Shown piece after piece: positions 3,436 to 30,868 of a stretch of DNA of 64,000 nucleotides. How positions within the stretch are numbered: the first letter of the stretch is position 1; every line of letters begins with the position of its first letter. The notes below the pieces were generated by a model that saw only the letters and a list, made by a program, of their open reading frames with translations, was not told where the DNA came from and searched no databases. The stretch is taken from NCBI GenBank assembly GCA_963557075.1, contig CAUWDA010000007.1, forward strand, positions 2,082 through 66,081, read 5' to 3'. Source of the DNA: an uncultured Flavonifractor sp. (GTDB lineage: Bacteria; Bacillota; Clostridia; Oscillospirales; Oscillospiraceae). Position numbers and translations under genes: made by a program.

Positions 3436-3464
3436 AAAATGGGCGGCCCGGAGGGGCCGCCCAT
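3436..3464 (-). terminator. Intrinsic terminator of minD-mgsA, downstream of the repeat array
   Basis: atgggcggccc/gggccgcccat stem followed by TTTT on the minus strand. Confidence 0.6.
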
Positions 3465-3468
3465 CTGG

Positions 3469-3936
3469 TTTACGCGGTAAAAGGCTTGCTCTTGGGATTG
3501 ATGATATCGCGCCAGTCCAAATCGCCCCGCGCCCCACCCGATGGTTCCCATCGTGTGGGGACCCCGGTGATTTCAAATGCGGCCGCCGGAAATGAATTCC
3601 GCCGGCCTTCGGCGGCATGAGCCGCCGTACCGCCGGAGGCGGTTTGCTGGAGCGGGGGAGAAGGCCCTCTCTTTACGCGGTAAAGGGCTTGCTCTTGGGA
3701 TTGATGATATCGCGCCAGTCCAAATCGCCCCGCGCCCCACCCGATGGTTCCCATCGTGTGGGGACCCCGGTGATTTCAAATGCGGCCGCCGGAAATGAAT
3801 TCCGCCGGCCTTCGGCGGCATGAGCCGCCGTACCGCCGGAGGCGGTTTGCTGGAGCGGGGGAGAAGGCCCTCTCTTTACGCGGTAAAGGGCTTACTCTTG
3901 GGATTGATGATATCGCGCCAATCCAAATCGCCCCGC
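3469..3936 (-). mobile_element. Tandem array of two 203-bp units (142-nt structured element + 61-nt copy of the mgsA 3' end)
   Basis: mgsA end at 3876-3936, 3673-3733 and 3470-3530; identical elements at 3734-3875 and 3531-3672; GGAATTCA core; segment antisense to the mgsA junction. The repeat is seen directly; the mobile nature is inferred. Confidence 0.7.
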
Positions 3937-4292
3937 TCCAGGCCGTGGATAAGCATCTCGGCGGTGGCCACATTGGTGGCGATGGGGATATTGTACTGGT
4001 CGCACAGGCGGGTGATATACTTCAGATCCGCATCCAGGTCGCTGGACTGGGGATCGGAGAAGAACAGGACCATATCGATCTCATTGTAGGCGATGCGGGC
4101 GCCGATCTGCTGGCTGCCGCCGTGCTCATGAGACAGGAAAAGCTGTACCGGCAGGCCGGTAGCCTCGGCCACCAGACGGCCCGTCGTGTTGGTGGCGCAG
4201 ATCGTATGCTTGGACAAAATACCACAGTAGGCGATACAGAATTGGACCATCAACTCTTTCTTCCGATCATGGCTCATCAACGCGATATTCAT
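3876..4292 (-). CDS. mgsA: Methylglyoxal synthase
   Basis: MNIALMSHDRKK, GGSQQIGARI, RLCDQYNIPIATNVATAE. Some catalytic-loop residues look divergent (SHEHGG). Confidence 0.85.
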   Translation of the reverse strand: MNIALMSHDRKKELMVQFCIAYCGILSKHTICATNTTGRLVAEATGLPVQLFLSHEHGGSQQIGARIAYNEIDMVLFFSDPQSSDLDADLKYITRLCDQYNIPIATNVATAEMLIHGLERGDLDWRDIINPKSKPFTA

Positions 4293-5158: not shown

Positions 5159-5920
5159 TTAAAGGGGGGATTTCTGCATTTTGGCCCACCGGCGGGGATA
5201 GTTCTGGGGGGTGGGGGAGACCTTCTCCACCACCACGACCCGGTGCTTCACGCCGGTGCCGGGGATCTCATAGTCCACCCGGGGGAGCAGACGGCCGCCC
5301 AGCTTGGCAATGGCCCGTGCCGCCCGGTCGATCTCGTCGCCGCTGTCCACGCTCTTCATGGCCAGGAACTTGCCCCCAACCTTGACATAGGGTAGGCACA
5401 GCTCGCTCAGGAGCTCCAGAGAGGCCACCGCCCGGGACACGGCGAAGTCAAAGCTGTCCCGGAAGCCCTCTTCGTGGGCCTGCTCCTCGCCGCGGGCGTG
5501 GAGACAGGTCACGCTGGTAAGGGAAAGCACTTTACAGACGGACTCCAGCCAGGTGACCCGCTTACCCAAACTGTCCAGCAGAGTGACGTTGAGGGTGGGC
5601 TCCAGGATCTTCAGAGGCATACCGGGGAAGCCGGCGCCGGTGCCCACGTCGATGAGAGTCTTATTTTTGAAGTCCTCCCCGATGGTGAGCAGGGCGGCGC
5701 AGTCCAGGAAATGGAGATCCACCACCTGGTCGGGATCGGTGATGGCGGTCAGATTCATGACCTGGTTCTGTTCCAGCAGCATGGCGCCATATTGGGCCAG
5801 AGCCTCAGCGCCCCCCGGCGTGTGGATACCCAGGGTCTCCAGACCCTGCTGAATGCGGGGCAGCTGAGCATCCAGACAGAGGGATGTGGAAGTCTGGGTG
5901 GTGTTTTTCTCGTCGGCCAT
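5159..5920 (-). CDS. rsmG: 16S rRNA m7G527 methyltransferase
   Basis: MNLTAIT..HFLD, DVGTGAGFPG, SRAVA, RRWAKMQKSPL. Confidence 0.95.
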   Translation of the reverse strand: MADEKNTTQTSTSLCLDAQLPRIQQGLETLGIHTPGGAEALAQYGAMLLEQNQVMNLTAITDPDQVVDLHFLDCAALLTIGEDFKNKTLIDVGTGAGFPGMPLKILEPTLNVTLLDSLGKRVTWLESVCKVLSLTSVTCLHARGEEQAHEEGFRDSFDFAVSRAVASLELLSELCLPYVKVGGKFLAMKSVDSGDEIDRAARAIAKLGGRLLPRVDYEIPGTGVKHRVVVVEKVSPTPQNYPRRWAKMQKSPL

Positions 5921-5983: not shown

Positions 5984-6622
5984 TTAGTTCAGGGCGATCC
6001 GGTAGACAGTGCCGTCTTTTTCCGCAAAGGCATACCCGTTTTCATCCACCGGTCCGGTCCAGTCAAAGATCTGGGGGGTGACCGGCTGGAAGTTGATGTC
6101 CATGTAATGAGTGGTGCAGGGGAAATAGCCGTTGCTCAGGGTGATGTTCCAGTCTCCAAAGGCTCTGCTGTCCTCAGAAACCGGTTTGCCGTCGGCGAAG
6201 AGCCAGACGCCGTCGTCTTTCTGGATGCTGGCGCTGTAGAAGAGCGGACCGCCGCGGTGCCTCAGAGACGTCCACTGACAGGGAATGATCAGCTTTCCTG
6301 TGGTGTCGATGACGCCACAGCCGCTGTCCCGACGGACGATGGCGTAGCCGTCGGCGTTAAAGGTCCCATAAGCGTCCACACCGCTGAGGATACCGGCCTG
6401 ATAGAGAGGCTGGACCGTGTCCTTTGGGTGGTCTTTACAGTCGGGGAAGGTGGCGACATCATTGATGGGCTCCAACAGGTCGCCGGACACCGGACTGAGC
6501 AGCTTTGCGAAATCCAACTGGGTGACGGTTTCGCCCAGGCCGTTGATCTGGTCGGGATCGGTATGGAGTACGCTCTCCAGATAGTAGGCGGTGGACGGGT
6601 CCTGCTGGAGACCGACGGACAT
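5984..6622 (-). pseudogene. Probable remnant of an SLH/WG-repeat surface protein
   Basis: Partial SLH (LYQAGILSGVDAYGTF) joined directly to WG-repeat-like DGYAIVR..GVIDTTGK.IIP; no signal peptide and no clear RBS. Confidence 0.45.
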
Positions 6623-6706
6623 GCCGTCAGCCCGGGTGAGGACTATCTGGCCCCACTCCGCCGGCGCTTCGGGCGGCGGGACCTGCCGTCCCAGGGCTTG
6701 TTCAGA

Positions 6707-7060
6707 TCACAGACCGAAATTGGCCAGCAGGGGAGGGACGCCCAGGATCAGGCTGACGACAAAACCGACAGCGCAGAGGACCGCCAGGACTACCATGGTG
6801 GCCCTGCGGGCGTGGGTGCTGTCCGGATGGCGGGCCAGATAGACCGCCATGGCGAAGATGCCGCCAATGCCGGGACAGGCGAAGAGAGGGGCGATGCCGG
6901 TGAGGTATTCGCCCTGGTTGAAAAAGGGATACACGTTGAGCAAGACGAAGCCCACCATGTAGACCACGCCCACCCAGGCCATGATGCGCTTGATGGGGGA
7001 GGCGGGGACAAAGGGTTCCTGCTCCTCCTGGGGGATCTGGTTTTCCGGTTGTTCACTCAT
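6707..7060 (-). CDS. Small membrane protein (3 TM), unknown function
   Basis: ORF overlapping the mscL stop; three hydrophobic segments. Confidence 0.7.
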   Translation of the reverse strand: MSEQPENQIPQEEQEPFVPASPIKRIMAWVGVVYMVGFVLLNVYPFFNQGEYLTGIAPLFACPGIGGIFAMAVYLARHPDSTHARRATMVVLAVLCAVGFVVSLILGVPPLLANFGL

Positions 7061-10379: not shown

Positions 10380-11165
10380 TTATTCGCTCCTTTCTTCCCG
10401 GGCGATGGCGTATTGATTGTGCTCCAGCAGTTCGGAGGCCAGGGCGGCATAGGCCTCAGCCCCCCGGGAATAGGGGTCGTAGGCCTGGACCGGCTTGCCG
10501 AAACTGGGGGCCTCGGACAGACGGACGTTGCGGGGAATGACGGTGGCATATACCTGTCCGGGGAAGTGGCGCTTGACCTCCTCCGCCACCTGCATGGACA
10601 GGTTGGTCCGCCCGTCGTACATAGTGAGTACCACGCCCTCCAGTCCGATCTTGGGGTTCAGAGACCGCTTCACGATGCGGACGGTGGAGAGCAGGTCGCT
10701 GAGCCCCTCCAGGGCGTAGTATTCGCACTGCACCGGCACCAGTACCGAGTCGGCGGCGCACAGGGCATTGAGGGTGAGCAGCTCCAGAGAGGGGGGACAG
10801 TCAATAAAGATATAGTCGTACTGGTCCTCCAGCTCAGCCAGGGCCTGCTTCAGCAGATATTCCCGGTGGTCGGCGGTGATCATCTCCACCGTGGCGCCGG
10901 CCAGGGATTTATTGGCGGGGATCACGTCCACATAGGGAGTATTGACCACCGCCCGGGACACCTGGACGCCGTTGAGAAGTACGTCATAGATATTGGGGGA
11001 GAGAGTTTTGTCCACGCCAAAACCGGAGGTGGTGTTGGCCTGGGGGTCAAAGTCGCACACCAGGACCCGCTGATCCTGCTTTTTCAGGGCGGCGGCCAGG
11101 TTGACGCAGGTGGTCGTTTTGCCGACCCCGCCCTTCTGATTTACAATAGCAATGGTTTTTGCCAT
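10380..11165 (-). CDS. parA: Chromosome partitioning ATPase ParA/Soj
   Basis: NQKGGVGKTT, DFDPQANTT, DCPPSL, PRNVRLSEAPSFG. Confidence 0.95.
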   Translation of the reverse strand: MAKTIAIVNQKGGVGKTTTCVNLAAALKKQDQRVLVCDFDPQANTTSGFGVDKTLSPNIYDVLLNGVQVSRAVVNTPYVDVIPANKSLAGATVEMITADHREYLLKQALAELEDQYDYIFIDCPPSLELLTLNALCAADSVLVPVQCEYYALEGLSDLLSTVRIVKRSLNPKIGLEGVVLTMYDGRTNLSMQVAEEVKRHFPGQVYATVIPRNVRLSEAPSFGKPVQAYDPYSRGAEAYAALASELLEHNQYAIAREERSE

Positions 11166-11322
11166 AGCGCACCTGCCTTTTATCTGGTAAACGATTCGAG
11201 TTCTATTATATCCCCTTGTATGGCGCAATTCAACTGAAATTGAAAAAGAAGTCCCTTTTCAAGAGAAGTGCGTCAGTCGCATTGCGATGGATTTCGGACC
11301 GATATAAGGCTGGGTCACTGTG

Positions 11323-11641
11323 AAAAAAGAGAGGGTGTTTCACGCCGCAGCGTAACGAAAATGTGCCGGTGGCACATTTTTAGCGTAGGTCGTGGCAGCT
11401 ATGCTGCCACGAGGGCACTACGTAAAAAAAGGAGTGTTTCACGCCGCAGCGTAACGAAAATGTGCCGGTGGCACATTTTTAGCGTAGGTCGTGGCAGCTA
11501 TGCTGCCACGAGGGCACTATGCAAAAAGGGAGTGTTTCACGGCGCAGCGCAACAAAAATGTGCCGGTGGCACATTTTTAGCGTAGATCGTGGCGGCTATG
11601 CTGCCACGAGGGCACTACGTAAAAAAAGGGAGTGTTTCACG
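11323..11641. repeat. Three tandem ~99-bp hairpin-rich units, each bounded by the left half of parS
   Basis: GTGTTTCACG recurs at 11335, 11434, 11532 and 11632; units contain aaaatgtgcc-ggt-ggcacatttt and tcgtggcagc-tat-gctgccacga hairpins. Confidence 0.9.
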
Positions 11642-11648
11642 TGAAACA
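11633..11648. promoter_or_regulatory. parS site
   Basis: Perfect palindrome TGTTTCACGTGAAACA, extended by ggag/ctcc. Confidence 0.92.
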
Positions 11649-11666
11649 CTCCAAAAAGAGAGGGGG

Positions 11667-12473
11667 TTATGATTTGGGAATGGTAATGGTGAGTTGGATG
11701 GCTTCCGCTGTCTCCTGCCGCTTGCAGTTGGCGTCTACGCCGGCGCTTTTCATCATGGACAGGCCCCGGGTGACGGTGTTGAGGAAGAGACGCACATCCT
11801 TGAGGATAAAGGCGGGCTTCTTCCGGGGCTGGCGGTCCGGTGTGGGGTGGAGCAGCTCCTCCACATAGGCCTCAGTGGCTGCCACGGTGAGACCGGACTC
11901 CGCCACATGGCGGGCGGTCTCCTCCTGAAGGGCTGGGTCCTCCAGCCGCAACAGCGCCCGGGCATGGCGCTCGGTACAGCCGTGCTCCCGCAGAATGGAC
12001 AGGGCCGCAGGGGGGAGACGGAGCAGCCGCAGTTTGTTAGCCACAGCGGACTGGGATTTGCCGATCCGCCGGGCGGCCTCCTCCTGAGAGAGATGGTAGG
12101 TCTGGATGAGGGCGGACAGGGCGGCGGCTTCCTCCACGAAATCCAGATCCCGCCGCTGTAAATTCTCCACCAGGGCCAGCAGGGAGGACTCCTGCCCGTC
12201 CACCGTGATCACAATACAGGGCACCTCGGCCAGCCCCGCCAGCTTGGAGGCCCGCAGCCGCCGCTCTCCGGATACCAGCTCATATCCGCTGCCGGTGCGG
12301 CGCACCGATAGAGGCTGGAGCACTCCGTGCTCTTTGATGCTGGCGGCCAGCTCCTCCAGACCATCCTGGGCAAAGAACTTCCGGGGTTGGCCGGGGTTGG
12401 GGGAGATGGCGTGAATGGGTAAAAACTGGACCCGATTGCTTTCAAACAGGCCCTTTCGGCGCAGCAGCGGCAT
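11667..12473 (-). CDS. noc: ParB-like nucleoid occlusion protein
   Basis: Second ParB-family gene directly upstream of parA (YELVSGERRLRA, ENLQRRDL), with Noc-type C-terminus (KDVRLFLNTV). Confidence 0.75.
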   Translation of the reverse strand: MPLLRRKGLFESNRVQFLPIHAISPNPGQPRKFFAQDGLEELAASIKEHGVLQPLSVRRTGSGYELVSGERRLRASKLAGLAEVPCIVITVDGQESSLLALVENLQRRDLDFVEEAAALSALIQTYHLSQEEAARRIGKSQSAVANKLRLLRLPPAALSILREHGCTERHARALLRLEDPALQEETARHVAESGLTVAATEAYVEELLHPTPDRQPRKKPAFILKDVRLFLNTVTRGLSMMKSAGVDANCKRQETAEAIQLTITIPKS

Positions 12474-12575
12474 GGCGGCCCCTCCTTCTCGACGGTAAAT
12501 CATAAGTCTGACTATAGATTACCATATTTTTCCGCAAAAGAAGGCGAAGAGGGTCGATTGGGAAATATTTTCCAT

Positions 12576-18097: not shown

Positions 18098-18670
18098 ATG
18101 AAGTTGTTGGAAGAGCGTATCCGCACCGATGGAAAGATCCGTGAGGGCGGCGTACTGAAAGTAGACAGTTTCCTCAACCATCAGATGGATGTGAAGCTGT
18201 TCCAGGAGATGGGTAAGGAATTTCTGCGCTTGTATAAGGACTGTGGGGTCACCAAGATTTTGACCATCGAGGCATCGGGGATCGGGATCGCGTGTGTGGC
18301 CGCGCAGTTTTTTGATTGTCCGGTGATCTTTGCCAAAAAGAACAAGACCAAGAACATCGCCGGTGATGTGTACACGTCCAAGGTGGAGTCCTTCACCCAC
18401 GGCAAGGTATATGATATCATCGTTTCCAAGGAGTTCCTGGGACCCGGGGACCGTGTGCTGGTCATTGATGATTTCCTGGCCAACGGCTCCGCCCTTCAGG
18501 GCTTGATCAAGCTGGTGCAGGATGCCGGGGCCACCCTGGTGGGGGCCGGTATCGCAGTGGAGAAGGCCTTCCAGCCCGGCGGCGACATGATCCGCGCGAT
18601 GGGCGTGCGGGTGGAATCTCTGGCGAGAATCAAGAGCATGAGCGAGGAGAACGGCTTCGAGTTCTGCTGA
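18098..18670 (+). CDS. xpt: Xanthine phosphoribosyltransferase
   Basis: LKVDSFLNHQMD, TIEASGI, IIDDFLANG-type PRT motif. Confidence 0.92.
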   Translation: MKLLEERIRTDGKIREGGVLKVDSFLNHQMDVKLFQEMGKEFLRLYKDCGVTKILTIEASGIGIACVAAQFFDCPVIFAKKNKTKNIAGDVYTSKVESFTHGKVYDIIVSKEFLGPGDRVLVIDDFLANGSALQGLIKLVQDAGATLVGAGIAVEKAFQPGGDMIRAMGVRVESLARIKSMSEENGFEFC

Positions 18671-26691: not shown

Positions 26692-28179
26692 ATGTCGTCA
26701 AGTGTTGGAGGACGAAATAAGAATATTGGCTATTATCTTTGTGTTTTGATTGCACTGTGCCTCATTTTCTTTTTTGGCGTTGTAGTTCCTCCCTTTGCGG
26801 GAATCACACCGGCGGGAATCGGTGTTTTAGGTGTATTTTTCGGGGTCCTGCTCATCACAATCGTAACGGGAGAGACATTCTGGCCAGCTTTGATGGGCCT
26901 GTTTGGGTTGATTATCTGTGACTATACAACTGCCAGTGGGCTTTTGGCGAGTTGGTTTGGAAATGCCACCATTCAGCAGATCATCTGGGTCATGGCCCTG
27001 ACTGGTGCGGTCACAGAATCGGGAGCAGTCAATGTGTTGGCCCGCAAGGTGCTGCGCATCCGGGCGTTTCGGGGACATCCTATGCGCCTGATTGTAGGTC
27101 TGTTTTTGACAGTACTGGTGTGCTCTGCCCTGGTAAGCAGTCCCACTACCATGCTTCTGCTGTGGTATCCCATCCTGGACGGGATCTGTGAGATGTGTGG
27201 TGTGGAGAAGGACAGTGACCTGAAGCGGGAGTTGCTGCTGGGTGTCTATATTTCCGCTATGGGCGCCTATGTGCTGCCATTCAAGGGAGTTCATCTCTCC
27301 TCTATTGCTATCATCAGTGGTATTATGGAGAGTAGCGGTCTGAGTTTCAACAGTGCCCTTTATCTGGTGGCTGCAACGCTGGTGGTGTTGGCCTTTGTGC
27401 TGGTATATGCTCTGTTTATCCGTTTTGTATGGAAGACCGACCTGACTCCCCTGAAGAACTTTGATGTGAATAAGATGGGGCTCACAGAGTCCGATCTGAA
27501 GATGACTTTCAAGCAAAAAGTGTTGCTTGGCTTCATGATCTTTGGTATTATATTCCTCCTGATTGGTATGGTACTGCCTGTAGAATCCGTCATCAACGTA
27601 TTCTACAAAAAAATTGGCTCTACCTGGATTTGGATCGTCCTCTTTGCTATTTTGTGTATGATCCGAGACAAAGAGGGCAAGCCGTTTATCAATGGCGTCA
27701 AGCTCCTCCAGTCCAAGACGATGTGGGGCATCGTAGCTGTTGCTGGCTGCTTTACCATCTGCGGTTCTGCAATCGCATCCGATGATTTGGGTATTAAAGC
27801 AGCCATTGCTACAGCCCTGGGGCCTGTTTTGGGAAGCGCAAGTTGGCCCATCATGGTTACACTTTGTGTGGCAGCTTCCACTATTTTCACGAACTTTACC
27901 AACGGCATGCCTGTCAGCTTTACCATCAATGCGATTTGTATTCCTTTGGCCTGTACGATGCAGATGAATGGCGAAGGAAATGCAACGATTTTGGGTGTTG
28001 CGACCATCCTCTCCAGCATGTGTGCATTCCTTACCAACGGGGCTATTGCGTATGCACCGGTTATGCTGGGACGGGAAGAGATGACCAATAAGTTTATCTT
28101 TACCAAAGGCGTAGTGACCAACATCATCTTTATTGTTTTGGCCAGCGCCATCTGTATCGTCTTTGGATATCTGTTCTGA
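26692..28179 (+). CDS. SLC13/DASS-like anion transporter
   Basis: Many TM helices; VSSPTT and FTNFTN repeat motifs; lower-GC codon usage. Confidence 0.7.
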   Translation: MSSSVGGRNKNIGYYLCVLIALCLIFFFGVVVPPFAGITPAGIGVLGVFFGVLLITIVTGETFWPALMGLFGLIICDYTTASGLLASWFGNATIQQIIWVMALTGAVTESGAVNVLARKVLRIRAFRGHPMRLIVGLFLTVLVCSALVSSPTTMLLLWYPILDGICEMCGVEKDSDLKRELLLGVYISAMGAYVLPFKGVHLSSIAIISGIMESSGLSFNSALYLVAATLVVLAFVLVYALFIRFVWKTDLTPLKNFDVNKMGLTESDLKMTFKQKVLLGFMIFGIIFLLIGMVLPVESVINVFYKKIGSTWIWIVLFAILCMIRDKEGKPFINGVKLLQSKTMWGIVAVAGCFTICGSAIASDDLGIKAAIATALGPVLGSASWPIMVTLCVAASTIFTNFTNGMPVSFTINAICIPLACTMQMNGEGNATILGVATILSSMCAFLTNGAIAYAPVMLGREEMTNKFIFTKGVVTNIIFIVLASAICIVFGYLF

Positions 28180-28215
28180 GCTCTCTTGGGAAAGAACAAA
28201 AGGAGTGTTTAGTCA

Positions 28216-29748
28216 ATGAGCAATGTATATGTGGAGCCAGCACGGGAACTACCTATAGAGGCCCAGTGCGACATCCTGGTGGTAGGCGGCGGCGCCGCCG
28301 GTCACTCTGCCGCTGTGGCCGCTGCCCGGGCAGGCGCCAAGAATATCATCCTGCTGGAGCGGTACGGATACATGGGGGGCGACGTCACCGGCGGCTATGT
28401 CATCATGGTGCCCAATCTTTCCTGGTATGATAAGTCCTTTGTCCGGGGCCTCCAGGAGGAGTGGTTCACCCGTCTGAGCAAAATCCCCGGGGCGGTGAGC
28501 GCCCCTTCCCTGGACCAGATCGGCAGCACTGATCCCGCCCTGCTTCACCCCTGGAGTGGCATCCATGACTGCGTCAGCCGTGGGGGATATGGTGGGTGCA
28601 AGCCTTCCTGTCTGGTGCGGTCGGTATATTTTGAGCCAAACCAGCTGAAGATCGAGCTGGACAAGATGCTTCTGGAGCATAAGGATGCCATCACTGTTAT
28701 GTGTCATAGCTGGGGTACCCGGCCCATTATGGAGAACGGAGCTGTCAAGGGTGTAATCTATGAGAGTAAGGAAGGCCGCAAGGCAATTCTGGCCAAAGTG
28801 GTCATTGACGCTACCGGTGACGGCGACCTGTACCGCCAGACCGGCACCCCCTTTGAAAGCATGGCTGACCAGGTTACCCGGGCCAATACCACTGCACTGG
28901 TGTGGCGCATCGGCGGCATCAACTGGGATTTGTTTTACCAGTGGCGCCATACCCATCCGGAGGAGATGGCGGCTCTGCGTCAGGGCTTGACACGGGTGGC
29001 GGGCTTCCGGTGTCTGCCTATGGCCAGTAATCAGAATGATATCTGCTGGGTCAACAACTGGCACGCTAACCGGGACTGCTCTGTAGTAAAGGATCAGACC
29101 GAGACTGAAATGAATACCCGCAATACCATGCGGGAGGTGCTGGAGTATCTGAGGCAGGCAGTGCCTGTTGCGTTCCGTAACGCCTATCTGTATGATATTG
29201 CGCCTCAGCTGGGTACCCGAATCAGCCGCCGGCTTAAGGGTGAATATGTGATGACCACCGCAGACTTTGCCTATGCGCTGGAGCATGATGACGTGATCGC
29301 CTGGCACTCTACCATCTGTCAGGTTAACGACTGCGGTCCCGTGGAGATCCCCTACCGGGCTATCCTGCCCAGGGGTGTAGAGAACCTGCTCTGCCCGGGC
29401 CGCCACCTGTCTGCCGACGGCATCGCCATCGACTGGCTGGACCTGATCCCTCAGTGCGTGGGTACCGGTCAGGCTGCCGGCGTGGCCGCCGCTGTGGCGG
29501 TGGCTGAGGGTACCACCGTCCATAACGTCAACATCCGTAAGGTCCAGGATATTCTGGTGGACCAGGATGTGCCCCTGCCCCACAACGCCAAATTTGAAGC
29601 AAAGGACCCCTCCTACCGGGAGATGGTGGAGGAGAAGCAGCATGGTTTGTACACCGACAAGGCCCAACTGGCCAGGGAGCAGAAGGAGAAGGGTCTGTCT
29701 CTGAATCTGGATTTTCAGGAAAAATTCAATGCGCCCCCCCAGCACTGA
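28216..29748 (+). CDS. FAD-dependent oxidoreductase (FAD_oxidored type)
   Basis: DILVVGGGAAG, LERYGYMGG, IDATGDGD, EIPYRAILP..VENLL..GR. Confidence 0.85.
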   Translation: MSNVYVEPARELPIEAQCDILVVGGGAAGHSAAVAAARAGAKNIILLERYGYMGGDVTGGYVIMVPNLSWYDKSFVRGLQEEWFTRLSKIPGAVSAPSLDQIGSTDPALLHPWSGIHDCVSRGGYGGCKPSCLVRSVYFEPNQLKIELDKMLLEHKDAITVMCHSWGTRPIMENGAVKGVIYESKEGRKAILAKVVIDATGDGDLYRQTGTPFESMADQVTRANTTALVWRIGGINWDLFYQWRHTHPEEMAALRQGLTRVAGFRCLPMASNQNDICWVNNWHANRDCSVVKDQTETEMNTRNTMREVLEYLRQAVPVAFRNAYLYDIAPQLGTRISRRLKGEYVMTTADFAYALEHDDVIAWHSTICQVNDCGPVEIPYRAILPRGVENLLCPGRHLSADGIAIDWLDLIPQCVGTGQAAGVAAAVAVAEGTTVHNVNIRKVQDILVDQDVPLPHNAKFEAKDPSYREMVEEKQHGLYTDKAQLAREQKEKGLSLNLDFQEKFNAPPQH

Positions 29749-29895
29749 GTCTCAGCCCACACAGAGCAGCCAGAAGGAACAAGAGGAGACAGCCGAGCCC
29801 ACTCTGGAGTTTTGGAGGAGTTTGGTGGACCGTCCAGGTTGCCAGATCACTGGGATATGCAACGAATGTGGGCAATGTGAGCATTGACAGCAAAC

Positions 29896-29943
29896 AAAAA
29901 CCGGGATCTGGTTCCACTGATTGGTGGAACCAGATCCCGGTTT
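29896..29943. terminator. Bidirectional terminator
   Basis: accgggatctggttccac/gtggaaccagatcccggt with A and T tracts. Confidence 0.75.
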
Positions 29944-29989
29944 AGTCATTCGGGTAGAAGCGGTAAAACAGGGAAAGGACATAAGATAG

Positions 29990-30868
29990 TTACTGGGTTA
30001 CCTGGCGCTCCATATAGCTAAGGAAGGCCGCCATTTCAGGGCCATGGGAAAGCGCATCGCACCAAACCATACGATTGCAGCTGGGGTGAAAGAAGTCCAA
30101 AGAAATTTCACAGACACCCTCCCAGGTAACCATCATGTCCAGCGGAAGGATGGGATAGAGGCGGCCTTGGACAGTAAGTTCCCGGAGCAGCAGCTGGTCC
30201 GAAGTGCGAAGTACCACATTTGGCTGCTTTCCAAGTGCATGGAAGCATGCGTTAAGGATAGCTTCAATCGGCATTGGAGCATTAAAAAATCCCAGGGGGA
30301 GGTCTAATATATCGGCGATACTGACACTGGGTTTTGAAGCAAGAGCGCTGTTTTCTGCTGCACCGATCATAATAGGATTCTGATATAGTTCCAATGTTTT
30401 GAAAAAGGTGCTATCCGGTCTGGCTGGGGTGAAAAACGCATCCAGATCTCCATCTTGGAGCAGTTTCCATGCGTCAAAGGCACTGTGCTCTTCCACGTGA
30501 AGTGGGATATCCGGATGATGCTGTTGAAATCCGTCAAAATAGGTACGGTAAACACAGTAAGCATTTGTGGGAGTAACGCCTAGACGGAGGGGCTGCGCAT
30601 GGGGACTTTGCTGGAGTTCAAGAATTTTAGAACGGGTGGCGGCATAGCAGGCGCTGAAACCGGAAAACAATTTTGCTAAAATATGTCCGCTTTCTGTCAG
30701 GGTCACTCCGTTTTTAGAACGAAGAAAGAGAACCGTATCGAACTCTTCCTCTAAATCTGCGATTGCCCGGGAAATCACCGAGCGGGAGACAAATAAAGCT
30801 TCCGCGGCGGAAGAGATATTACCTTTTTGACACACGGTTTGAAAATAAGAAATTTGTTTCAGTGTCAT
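29990..30868 (-). CDS. LysR-family regulator
   Basis: MTLKQISYF..GNISSAAEALFVSRSVISRAI..LE. Confidence 0.9.
   Translation of the reverse strand: MTLKQISYFQTVCQKGNISSAAEALFVSRSVISRAIADLEEEFDTVLFLRSKNGVTLTESGHILAKLFSGFSACYAATRSKILELQQSPHAQPLRLGVTPTNAYCVYRTYFDGFQQHHPDIPLHVEEHSAFDAWKLLQDGDLDAFFTPARPDSTFFKTLELYQNPIMIGAAENSALASKPSVSIADILDLPLGFFNAPMPIEAILNACFHALGKQPNVVLRTSDQLLLRELTVQGRLYPILPLDMMVTWEGVCEISLDFFHPSCNRMVWCDALSHGPEMAAFLSYMERQVTQ

Follow-up and report, generated by a model that had tools for sequence, protein, structure and literature searches.

The tandem repeat at the 3' end of mgsA in the 64,000-nt stretch of DNA analyzed here (the window) can be read as a two-unit array of a miniature insertion element that contains no open reading frame (ORF), with a guided first insertion and a second unit derived from unequal exchange; we consider this composite reading about evenly balanced between right and wrong. 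The element belongs to a family of tiny mobile elements in gut Oscillospiraceae that is apparently undescribed, and a full-text literature search found no description of such elements. At least 115 loci were obtained in a genome scan and at least 120 in a metagenome scan, the hosts being almost all Oscillospiraceae among the matches listed.

The array was delimited by Tandem Repeats Finder at positions 3469–3936, with a period of 203, 2.3 copies and 98% matches. Each 203-nt unit joins 61 nt that duplicate the end of mgsA, stop codon included, starting at the insertion point, to a structured module of 142 nt; in the module a short leader and the guide are accompanied by several covarying hairpins, and the 3' terminus is conserved (a hairpin, then TGGGG plus 1–3 nt). 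Only one base (3482, A/G) distinguishes units 3469–3671 and 3672–3874, and modules E1 and E2 are 100% identical (142/142). The 203-bp period, the three 61-nt tails and the two identical elements reported in the preliminary description were thus all confirmed. The mgsA coding sequence (methylglyoxal synthase, 138 aa, minus strand, 3876–4292 in the ORF list) ends in the proximal tail carried by the element; its identity is supported by a Pfam match (PF02142, MGS) to the identical protein in related contigs and by homologues named methylglyoxal synthase. All features of the array lie on the same minus strand. The regenerated target, CTGGA/GCGGGG (3931–3941), has its insertion junction between 3937 and 3936, as placed by the sequence and the empty alleles. 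The unit-borne proximal tail T1 (3876–3936), which is the working mgsA 3' end, is followed by the gene-proximal element E1 (3734–3875), which was located with the covariance model and has the 3' end ...GTGGGGC, the middle tail T2 (3673–3733), the distal element E2 (3531–3672, assigned by its identity to E1 and by the covariance model) and the distal tail T3 (3470–3530), which comparison with empty sites identifies as the native mgsA end, displaced and non-coding. A terminator-like hairpin native to mgsA, GGGCGGCCC CTCC GGGCCGCCC and then ATTTTG (3436–3462, minus strand), lies downstream of the entire array and directly after the tail in empty alleles; it was missed by the consensus terminator scan because it has only 4 T.

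The three tails vary at tail positions 16, 43 and 49 alone, in codons GAT/GAC, AGT/AGC and CCC/CCT. Every change falls at a third codon position and is synonymous, and therefore T1 (alleles T,T,C), T2 (C,C,C) and T3 (C,C,T) all encode RGDLDWRDIINPKSKPFTA followed by the stop codon. The guide of E1, CCCCGC/TCCAG in gene sense (3850–3860), pairs with the target across the junction, over 5 nt to the left and 6 nt to the right, and the guide of E2 was found at 3647–3657 by its complementarity to the target. On the plus strand both read CTGGAGCGGGG, the exact complement of 3931–3941; shuffled sequence yields an expectation of 0.17 occurrences of this 11-mer, but the window has four, three of them at the mgsA locus. 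The gene junction reads CTGGA/GCGGGG and both element–tail junctions read GGGGC/GCGGGG. The sequence therefore bears out the earlier claims that the guide complements this site and that the full target is kept only at the gene copy. E1 scored 58 bits (E = 2.6e-12) with covariance model R1 and had a folding z-score of −4.7. The apical motif of hairpin H3, GGAATTCATTTCC (E1, 3791–3803; E2, 3588–3600; minus strand), has four matches in the window against 0.13 expected, and the H3 stem shows covariation. The 3'-terminal hairpin H4, CCCCAC-A-CGATGG-GAA-CCATCG-G-GTGGGG-C (E1, 3734–3763; E2, 3531–3560; minus strand), ends at the element–tail junction.

The mgsA array is no assembly artefact. An independent SPAdes assembly (L004) contains it without a single difference over 473 nt, and a third assembly (L009) also holds it, interrupted by the contig end. 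Moreover, in a comparison of the locus for which 25 contigs were read and the sequence was examined in nine, contigs encoding identical MgsA held 0, 1 or 2 units, a polymorphism of the kind that the preliminary description had proposed counting across strains. It is highly improbable that the repeat arose in assembly or from a collapsed strain mixture with one unit per genome. The identical stretch (tail end, element and tail start, ~169 nt) does exceed usual assembly k-mers, and contig L009 does end within the array; however, a junction between the 3' end of an element and the C,C,C tail is possible only in a real array, the arrays of the window, L004 and in part L009 come from different samples and assemblers, and comparable arrays occur in many species, including a 3.25-Mb Intestinimonas massiliensis record (L068).

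The arrival of the first unit was reconstructed from empty alleles. Five contigs (L002, L003, L005, L006 and L007) carry the same target 11-mer with the native tail directly after it. The C,C,T alleles of T3 are those of all five (5/5); T3 is identical in sequence to three of these tails, and those of L002 and L006 differ from it only at the last codon (GCA/GCG). The sequence downstream of T3 is also the same as that downstream of the empty-site tails. Therefore, T3 is the native and oldest tail, as had been proposed. Compared with the empty allele L003, the occupied alleles show 0 SNPs in 687 nt upstream, three synonymous SNPs in the 61-nt proximal tail and, beyond the distal tail, none over at least 559 nt of downstream sequence, and the foreign proximal tail has a sharp boundary at GA/GC. 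A distal tail with the empty-site allele, together with a foreign proximal tail that is sharply bounded, indicates that the first unit came by site-specific insertion. The unit sits exactly at CTGGA/GCGGGG; its own tail became the working gene end and pushed the native tail downstream, which leaves the protein as it was and regenerates the target next to the gene, in agreement with the claim that the gene-proximal site stays targetable. As for the mechanism, a DNA copy would have been inserted site-specifically under the direction of base pairing, presumably by an enzyme encoded elsewhere and not in the unit, and the strand that matters would be the sense strand of the element. The geometry suggests a single-strand "peel-and-paste" process of the IS200/IS605 type, in which the guide just 5' of a hairpin would base-pair with the flank destined for cleavage, and at the 3' end the cut would fall just after the terminal hairpin, as in elements of that type.

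Complementarity between guide and target, first described at mgsA, proved to be a co-varying feature of the whole family. An exact cognate complement of at least 10 nt was found in 43/87 copies, against 4/430 non-cognate pairs. Guides are 9–17 nt long and co-vary with dozens of different targets; their pairing spans the junction, with 3–8 nt to the left and 5–13 nt to the right (most commonly 5–6 and 8), and the base before the junction may be A, T, G or C and is Watson–Crick paired. Members insert near gene ends and bring a replacement gene end, a host segment of 35–100 nt whose copies often end 0–2 nt past the stop codon. By a crude test, the flanking gene-end duplication is present in 91/126 copies, and the codon differences between proximal and distal tails are 81 synonymous versus 29 non-synonymous. 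No ORF or cargo was found in any of the 126 copies. The scaffold of ~115 nt forms three or four simple hairpins, with compensatory changes in 14/22 predicted pairs; the element-sense strand folds better in 89 copies versus 25, and has 199 versus 108 G–U pairs. The guide directly adjoins a GGGR-CCCC...GGGG hairpin in 12/47 copies. The 3' hairpin is present in all copies, as the search pattern required, and a matching 5' hairpin was found in 15/47 under a strict pattern; in the mgsA element it is not obvious. No family member was found in viral contigs, and no autonomous cargo-carrying relative was found when a tail copy was sought up to 6 kb upstream of each core. The "long" cases in the latter search were arrays or artefacts.

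The origin of the second mgsA unit is less certain. We infer that it came from unequal homologous exchange, in which the displaced native tail of one chromosome copy would have crossed with the element-borne tail of another to give a hybrid middle tail; with two units present, exchange between the identical elements could then collapse or expand the array, giving one- and two-copy strains. The middle tail carries the distal, native-like alleles at its two 5' sites and the proximal, element-like allele at its 3' site. This C,C,C combination is the predicted crossover hybrid, and hence unequal recombination, mentioned in the preliminary description as a simpler alternative, fits at least as well as re-insertion. 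The two elements are identical in both the window and L004. Furthermore, in the three-unit arrays L068 and L197 the proximal tail differs from two mutually identical internal tails, as exchange between elements predicts. Against unequal exchange, the crossover giving C,C,C would have to fall within the 6 nt that separate tail positions 43 and 49, and the same array stands on two SNP backgrounds (the window and L009 on one, L004 on the other). The elements are also not identical in L009, where E1 has two SNPs and E2 none and single-copy L008 carries the same E1 variant, a pattern that fits either a separately arriving proximal unit or later recombination.

The preliminary description had proposed re-insertion, with the second unit guided into the regenerated target and arrays growing from the gene side. 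The native distal tail and the regenerated target that it assumed were both found, but re-insertion as the origin of the second copy seems to us doubtful, although by no means negligible. In its favor, the guide has its sole full match in the regenerated target, the native tail is the distal one, the identical array occurs on two SNP backgrounds, and the E1 variant of L009, occurring alone in L008, behaves as though the proximal unit were a separate module. Serial insertion does occur in the family: the elements of L103 differ at 14/149 positions, with tails that differ mostly at synonymous sites, and in the diverged-unit arrays L176, L217 and L231 the middle tails carry private alleles and are not hybrids of their neighbors. 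However, re-insertion of the resident unit at mgsA predicts a T,T,C middle tail, whereas C,C,C, exactly the expected crossover hybrid, was observed. Re-insertion would require that a unit with a C,C,C tail came first and a T,T,C unit afterwards, yet a single-unit C,C,C proximal allele is absent from the nine contigs in which sequence was examined (25 read), and the elements of the window and L004 are 142/142 identical although their tails differ at 2/61. Among the loci of MgsA homologues, P0006 and P0007 are empty and P0003 has one diverged unit, with no C,C,C single-unit allele. A metagenome scan for the mgsA-specific element–tail junction gave 0 matches and hence no added copy-number data.

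Polarity was considered with a further member of the family, which occupies the 3' end of an ABC-transporter permease gene of the window (23315–24304) and spans 24253–24448 on the plus strand (covariance model, 53 bits). It comprises a unit-borne tail (24253–24305), an element (24306–24448) with the guide GCTGCTTGTC (24329–24338) and a second tail copy (24449–24501), all on the plus strand; the two tails show six differences, all synonymous. The unit is polymorphic among strains, and the empty allele L270 matches the proximal tail and not the distal one, which counts against the explanation favored here. Such an allele would also result from a deletion by slippage within the 3' block of 23 identical nt. 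The region is a fine-scale recombination mosaic, and the locus therefore failed as a check on which tail is foreign. The opposite polarity, in which the mobile piece is the element plus its downstream tail inserted just after the stop codon, or in which a circle made of the element and a single tail integrates by a homologous, Campbell-type crossover at any point of the tail, is unlikely. The proximal-type tail of L270, with the distal tail as the outlier relative to other strains, the frequent end of tail copies 0–2 nt after the stop codon and the commonness of mosaic tails speak for it. However, such a mobile piece would have no conserved terminus, yet the TGGGG+N 3' end adjoins a tail in every copy; across dozens of targets the opposite boundary is defined by the guide; and at mgsA it is the proximal tail that forms the foreign segment with a sharp boundary. 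Homologous integration, moreover, gives no role to the 3–8 guide nt that pair with the left flank.

Less likely still is an element acting at the RNA level, with a ribozyme- or intron-like guide (compare P1/P10 of group I introns), reverse splicing into mRNA, reverse transcription and recombination. The contiguous guide does pair with both sides of the junction, its downstream part lying 5' of its upstream part as in group I introns, the sense strand has strong covarying structure with an excess of G–U pairs, and the mgsA element is placed before the native terminator, within the 3' UTR. However, units antisense to the host gene exist that carry the 5' head of the gene with its RBS and ATG (L135 at hisS, L025, L053, L015, L060, L061 and L106), and in L068 the unit-borne tail holds a full terminator ahead of the element; both observations point to the DNA level rather than the mRNA level. 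No reverse transcriptase was seen in the flanks, and Rfam 15 gave 0 matches at gathering score over the entire window. When the mgsA locus was searched permissively against Rfam, no intron family appeared; the matches were weak, chance-level ones to small RNAs, far below gathering (ryfA, for example, with E = 0.00037 and 24 bits, where gathering requires 80). A group I intron was rejected on the ~115-nt scaffold, the lack of an Rfam intron match and the variable, Watson–Crick-paired base before the junction, which is not a U–G wobble; the antisense units also break the orientation rule of group I and group II introns.

In comparison with known systems, the end geometry appears most to resemble that of the IS200/IS605 single-strand DNA transposons. 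These elements and their non-autonomous PATEs (IS608 and ISDra2 being examples) insert seamlessly 3' of a short flank with no target-site duplication; the flank is read by an internal guide of 4–5 nt lying 5' of a subterminal hairpin, one strand is active, and similar imperfect hairpins occur at both ends. Their Y1 HUH transposase (TnpA) is supplied by the element or in trans, and the active strand is on the lagging-strand template. Likewise, the insertions described here lie directly after the guide-paired left flank without target duplication, as membership of that group would entail, with the guide just 5' of a subterminal hairpin and a putative 3' cleavage site after the terminal one; a single active strand and small non-autonomous copies mobilized in trans would be further likenesses. 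Unlike IS200/IS605, the guide is 9–17 nt long and also pairs with the first 5–13 nt of the element's own 5' end, a host gene end of 35–100 nt is carried, and a 5' hairpin is present in a subset only. In addition, no Y1 transposase was found in the flanks and no consistent replication-strand bias is visible among the window elements. The tblastn search used TnpA of IS608 and IS200 and gave no match in 1.83 Mb of flanks of ~250 copies, a scope in which a single-copy gene elsewhere in the genomes would be missed. Pfam analysis of ten window genes returned ParA, ParB and families of housekeeping function; none was a transposase, integrase or reverse transcriptase.

Prophages, integrative and conjugative elements and islands also bring an attP with the 3' end of a tRNA, tmRNA or protein gene, and tandem arrays of them are known. 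The units resemble them in the replacement gene end that keeps the gene intact and in the direct repeats of the gene end that flank the element. Unlike them, the units measure 200 nt, have no integrase, bear a site-complementary guide, use dozens of target genes and include variants that replace the 5' head of a gene. An integrase-type element or remnant (CIME-like) was rejected, because no integrase lies in or next to the units and a co-varying guide is unexpected for att sites read by a protein. IStrons combine a group I intron with an IS605-type transposon, and splicing repairs the transcript (PMC10690162). The likeness lies in a transposon that cancels the cost of its insertion into genes; in the units, however, a spare gene end makes the repair in the DNA itself, and an intron core is lacking. 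Introns of groups I and II pair through an internal guide sequence or EBS/IBS contacts and home into the cognate intact site; the group I core (P3–P9) has a guanosine site and takes at least ~200 nt, and the 5' splice site follows a U paired with G. The contiguous guide across the junction and the cognate intact site as destination are shared, whereas the units have no core, no Rfam match, no intron-encoded protein and a variable orientation to transcription, and their size is far below that of any known self-splicing intron. IS110/IS1111 elements use a DEDD recombinase and a two-loop bridge or seek RNA whose split guides read both strands and both partners (PMC13604230). Insertion that is programmable, nucleic-acid-guided, seamless and site-specific would be common to both, but the units have one contiguous guide complementary to one strand, carry a gene end and hold no ORF, and a bridge-RNA element was rejected on these grounds. 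As in integron cassette arrays, insertion at a regenerated proximal site would put the oldest units distal; in contrast, there is no attC/attI pair, integrase or cassette ORF, and the polarity is only partly supported. A diversity-generating retroelement was also rejected, since the tail differences are T/C at synonymous third positions and not adenine-specific, and no reverse transcriptase was seen in the flanks.

We speculate, as a possibility that we hold tentatively, that these units represent a new kind of mobile element: a protein-less DNA of ~200 nt with a reprogrammable 9–17-nt guide and a spare gene end, moved by an enzyme or chemistry unrelated to IS200/IS605 TnpA, IS110 recombinases, group II intron RNPs or CRISPR-associated transposons, with arrays as the footprint of repeated homing into a site that every insertion regenerates. 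If so, gut Oscillospiraceae would carry an abundant tiny element that specifies where it inserts through a short complementary stretch and that removes its own cost to the host by supplying a new gene end. It would be a compact natural case of programmable, scar-free and gene-sparing DNA insertion, and would point to a guided enzyme behind it. The family accounts for odd duplicated gene ends and for 200-bp tandem repeats that break Oscillospiraceae assemblies, and by retaining the synonymous codons of the donor its tails mark horizontal exchange between lineages. The mgsA array offers natural 0-, 1- and 2-copy alleles in one species, with which guided re-insertion could be compared with homologous expansion and collapse.

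The three window elements are divided between the minus strand (one) and the plus strand (two), and GC skew is positive throughout; with mixed strands and no change in the sign of the skew, which is confounded here by gene orientation, no consistent replication-strand bias is visible. A loop–linker pseudoknot between the H3 loop (TTCAY) and the UGAA of the A/U-rich linker was rejected, as it fits two of the three window elements and few others by eye. The remaining member, at the 3' end of xpt (18098–18670), spans 18616–18814 on the plus strand and scored 71 bits with the covariance model. It consists of a unit-borne tail (18616–18671), an element (18672–18814) and a displaced native tail (18815–18870), and its guide GCCAGAGATTCCAC (18698–18711, plus strand) is complementary to GTGGA/ATCTCTGGC. 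The gene spacing of the occupied xpt site was found in 24/24 contigs read (5 displayed).

The repeat anatomy proposed in the preliminary description for positions 3469–3941, a 203-bp period with three gene tails, two identical elements and a guide complementary to its target, was borne out. Tandem Repeats Finder reported 2.3 copies of period 203 with 98% matches (3469–3936), and a single base, at 3482, separates the unit at 3469–3671 from that at 3672–3874. On the minus strand, mgsA (3876–4292) ends in CTGGA followed by the junction, and the proximal tail T1 (3876–3936), element E1 (3734–3875), middle tail T2 (3673–3733), element E2 (3531–3672), distal tail T3 (3470–3530) and a terminator-like hairpin (3436–3462) follow, with the next gene beyond. 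E1 and E2, the 142-nt segments between the tails, are 100% identical. The tails differ only at their positions 16, 43 and 49, which read T,T,C in T1, C,C,C in T2 and C,C,T in T3; as these are third codon positions, all three encode RGDLDWRDIINPKSKPFTA followed by a stop codon. Each element contains CCCCGC/TCCAG (slash, junction), the exact complement of CTGGA/GCGGGG in the gene, and the window holds four occurrences of this guide 11-mer (0.17 expected), of which three lie at the mgsA locus. The full target indeed survives only at the gene-proximal junction, both element–tail junctions reading GGGGC/GCGGGG.

Unit copy number, which the preliminary description had proposed to count, was surveyed in contigs encoding an identical MgsA protein and was found to be 0, 1 or 2. 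The site is empty in five contigs (L002, L003, L005, L006, and L007), of which L003 is a polished long-read contig, and carries one unit in L001 and L008, with 12 further places similar to L001 beyond those displayed. Two units are present in L004, whose array equals that of the window over all 473 nt, and in L009, whose array is cut by the contig end and differs by two SNPs, both within E1. Mixed single-unit strains cannot yield the junction between an element 3′ end and a C,C,C tail, so the assembled contigs speak against the array having been created during assembly. In a related lineage with 95% identical MgsA, one diverged unit occupies the same site (L135:1622-1766 and L136:1622-1766); it keeps the guide but has a degenerate apical motif in hairpin H3 (GAAATTTAG), a K-to-T change in the proximal tail and TGA as stop codon, and may be an old copy that is no longer active.

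The empty alleles identify the foreign part. In all five, the tail reads C,C,T and leads into the native terminator; every occupied allele has this C,C,T version as its distal tail, which makes the distal tail the native one and, as proposed earlier, the oldest. Compared with the empty L003, occupied alleles are free of SNPs over the 687 nt upstream of the junction and over 559 nt or more beyond the distal tail, and carry 3 SNPs inside the 61-nt proximal tail. These sharp boundaries imply that the unit of gene-end copy (tail′) plus element was inserted exactly at GA/GC; homologous import is disfavoured because so diverged a donor lineage would have carried in flanking SNPs as well. Judged from these alleles, the proximal tail retains the synonymous codon choices of another lineage.

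We consider the chances about even that the second mgsA unit arose by unequal exchange. If the distal tail on one chromosome copy crossed over with the proximal tail on a second copy, the resulting middle tail would be distal in its 5′ part and proximal in its 3′ part. The C,C,C seen here has this hybrid form, with the crossover point necessarily within the 6 nt that separate tail positions 43 and 49, and the identical elements predicted by this route are seen in the window and in L004. Once two units were present, exchange between elements would allow easy collapse to one or expansion; the three-unit arrays L068 and L197, each with two identical internal tails and a differing proximal tail, fit such exchange. 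Re-insertion into the regenerated target, the preliminary description's main proposal, is rather unlikely as the source of this second unit, and we rate its simpler alternative, unequal recombination, above it. Had the resident unit re-inserted, the middle tail would be T,T,C, which is not the case; insertion from a different donor is possible but would need a C,C,C proximal tail in a single-unit allele, and no such allele was observed. Some support for re-insertion comes from L009, where E1 and E2 differ by two SNPs and the E1 variant is found alone in L008, and more from the presence of an identical array on two SNP backgrounds. Elsewhere in the family, arrays of clearly diverged units (L103; also L176, L217, and L231, with private middle-tail alleles) also support re-insertion, and both processes operate in the family.

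Confidence in the mgsA polarity is lowered by the permease site (24253–24501 in the window; L267–L276), which is occupied or empty among strains and shows three tail alleles. Here one empty allele, L270, ends in a tail of the proximal type, and it is the distal tail that stands apart, as if the polarity were reversed. However, a ten-strain alignment revealed a very fine-scale mosaic of SNPs and alleles around the site, suggesting frequent short-tract recombination around these insertions, and a slippage deletion in the 23-nt identical 3′ block of both tails would also leave a proximal-type tail. For these reasons the permease pattern was not taken to refute the mgsA polarity, and the reversed polarity is kept as a rival reading. 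Unlike the mgsA and permease units, the xpt unit (18616–18870; L277–L281), whose tails are identical to each other in the window, seems to be fixed in this species: it appears present in 24 of 24 contigs with identical Xpt, as judged by occupied-site gene spacing in the five contigs displayed.

These two loci, at the 3′ ends of xpt and of an ABC permease gene, share the build of the mgsA unit. The xpt guide GCCAGAGATTCCAC is complementary to GTGGA/ATCTCTGGC; the permease guide is GCTGCTTGTC, and the two permease tails show six differences, each of them synonymous. A search pattern built from motifs common to members, including the required H3 apical motif GGAATTCAYTTCC, matched at least 115 stretches in species-representative genomes, almost all of those listed being Oscillospiraceae (Flavonifractor, Intestinimonas, Pseudoflavonifractor, Oscillibacter, Dysosmobacter, and Enterenecus), and at least 120 more in metagenomes, many from human gut; none was found in viral contigs. 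By a crude test, a gene-end duplication flanks 91 of 126 copies, and the tail copies differ at 81 synonymous versus 29 non-synonymous codons. The longest exact complement between the element 5′ part and its own junction reaches at least 10 nt in 43 of 87 copies, compared with 4 of 430 non-cognate element–junction pairs; the pairing crosses the junction, most commonly with 5–6 nt to its left and 8 nt to its right. No cargo or ORF was found in family copies.

The family alignment shows covarying hairpins, with H2 and H3, an A/U-rich linker and a 3′ end of the form GGGG-Y-CCCCA-hairpin-TGGGG plus 1–3 nt, with compensatory changes in 14 of 22 predicted pairs. A subset of copies has a GGGR-CCCC...GGGG hairpin directly after the guide, resembling the 3′ hairpin. 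A covariance model from 116 copies matched only E1, E2 and the xpt and permease elements in the window. In 89 of 114 copies the fold of the element-sense strand is the more stable of the two strands (mean gain 2.7 kcal/mol), and this strand has 199 G-U pairs versus 108 in its complement.

Most units lie at gene 3′ ends in sense orientation, and in L068 the carried tail holds a full terminator upstream of the element. At least eight units are antisense to the gene, near its 5′ end (L135, L025, L053, L015/L050, L060, L061, and L106), and carry, instead of a tail, a replacement head of RBS, ATG start codon and first codons, the old head being stranded on the element's far side. For example, L135:2270-2404 (minus strand) lies between the hisS leader and hisS, with a guide GAGGCTGCTGCCCGCG complementary to CGCGGGCA/GCAGC. 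The guide thus sometimes has the same sense as the mRNA and therefore does not act on it. The same antisense units, the small scaffold, the variable, Watson–Crick-paired base that precedes the junction and the absence of any Rfam match at gathering score across the whole window argue against an intron-like or ribozyme element acting at the RNA level. What both orientations have in common would be a guide that pairs with the DNA strand running colinear with the element.

In every copy the tail directly follows the conserved 3′ terminus, and the opposite boundary is set by the guide; the mobile piece would therefore be tail′, leader, guide and scaffold, in that order. Cuts after the left flank and after the element 3′ end, followed by a partner swap, would give the observed arrangement and allow seamless excision. 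In IS608 and ISDra2, the flank that will be cleaved is recognised through pairing with a guide lying 5′ of a hairpin foot, the cleavage site at the 3′ end follows the terminal hairpin, one strand is active and no target is duplicated. We infer that the mechanism follows this IS200/IS605 single-strand logic, with two new features: a long guide, which reads the first 5–13 nt to the right of the junction as well, and a cargo of gene-end sequence. Together they would allow insertion only at sites where this cargo restores the gene. A tblastn search with approximate queries detected no Y1 transposase in 1.83 Mb of flanks, and the ten window genes scanned included no transposase. The + strand has positive GC skew throughout the window, where no consistent replication-strand bias of the elements is visible.

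The family resembles IS200/IS605 in end geometry and guide logic, integrative elements with a replacement gene end in carrying a spare gene end, IStrons in cost cancellation, group I and II introns in the contiguous guide, and IS110 bridge-RNA elements in programmable insertion; where testable, each of these closest systems has at least one defining feature that the family does not share. We file it as guided, seamless, non-autonomous insertion elements. A full-text literature search found no description of it. That the family forms a category of its own is a substantial possibility.

A sub-family from rabbit-gut MAGs (L014, L030, L035, L038–L040, L048, L086, L088, L098, L101, L108, and L124) has no gene-tail duplication and often adjoins tRNA genes or terminators; a partial copy of its own 3′ part, made up of the linker and one half of the terminal hairpin, precedes the element, as if elements had inserted into elements. 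In two arrays (L059:~6396-6900 and L104:~5270-5800), the distal partial copy does not end with the stop codon but also includes the leader and the guide's 5′ half, ending at or near the guide position that faces the insertion junction, which might mean that the guide strand itself is usable as a breakpoint.

Elsewhere in the window, gene orientation flips near 17.9 kb, and the ori-proximal genes rsmG, parA and parB are present with no origin-type skew switch visible. Three tandem repeats of 98–99 bp (11326–11650) lie between parA/soj (10380–11228) and a second parB/noc-like gene (11667–12503); each opens with a half parS-like TGTTTCACG and has two hairpins, and the array terminates in a perfect palindrome, TGTTTCACGTGAAACA, which we take to match the parS consensus. 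Finally, G+C drops to 0.54–0.58 at 26000–30000, compared with about 0.62–0.64 elsewhere in the window, and this segment contains a FAD-dependent oxidoreductase gene (28216–29748).
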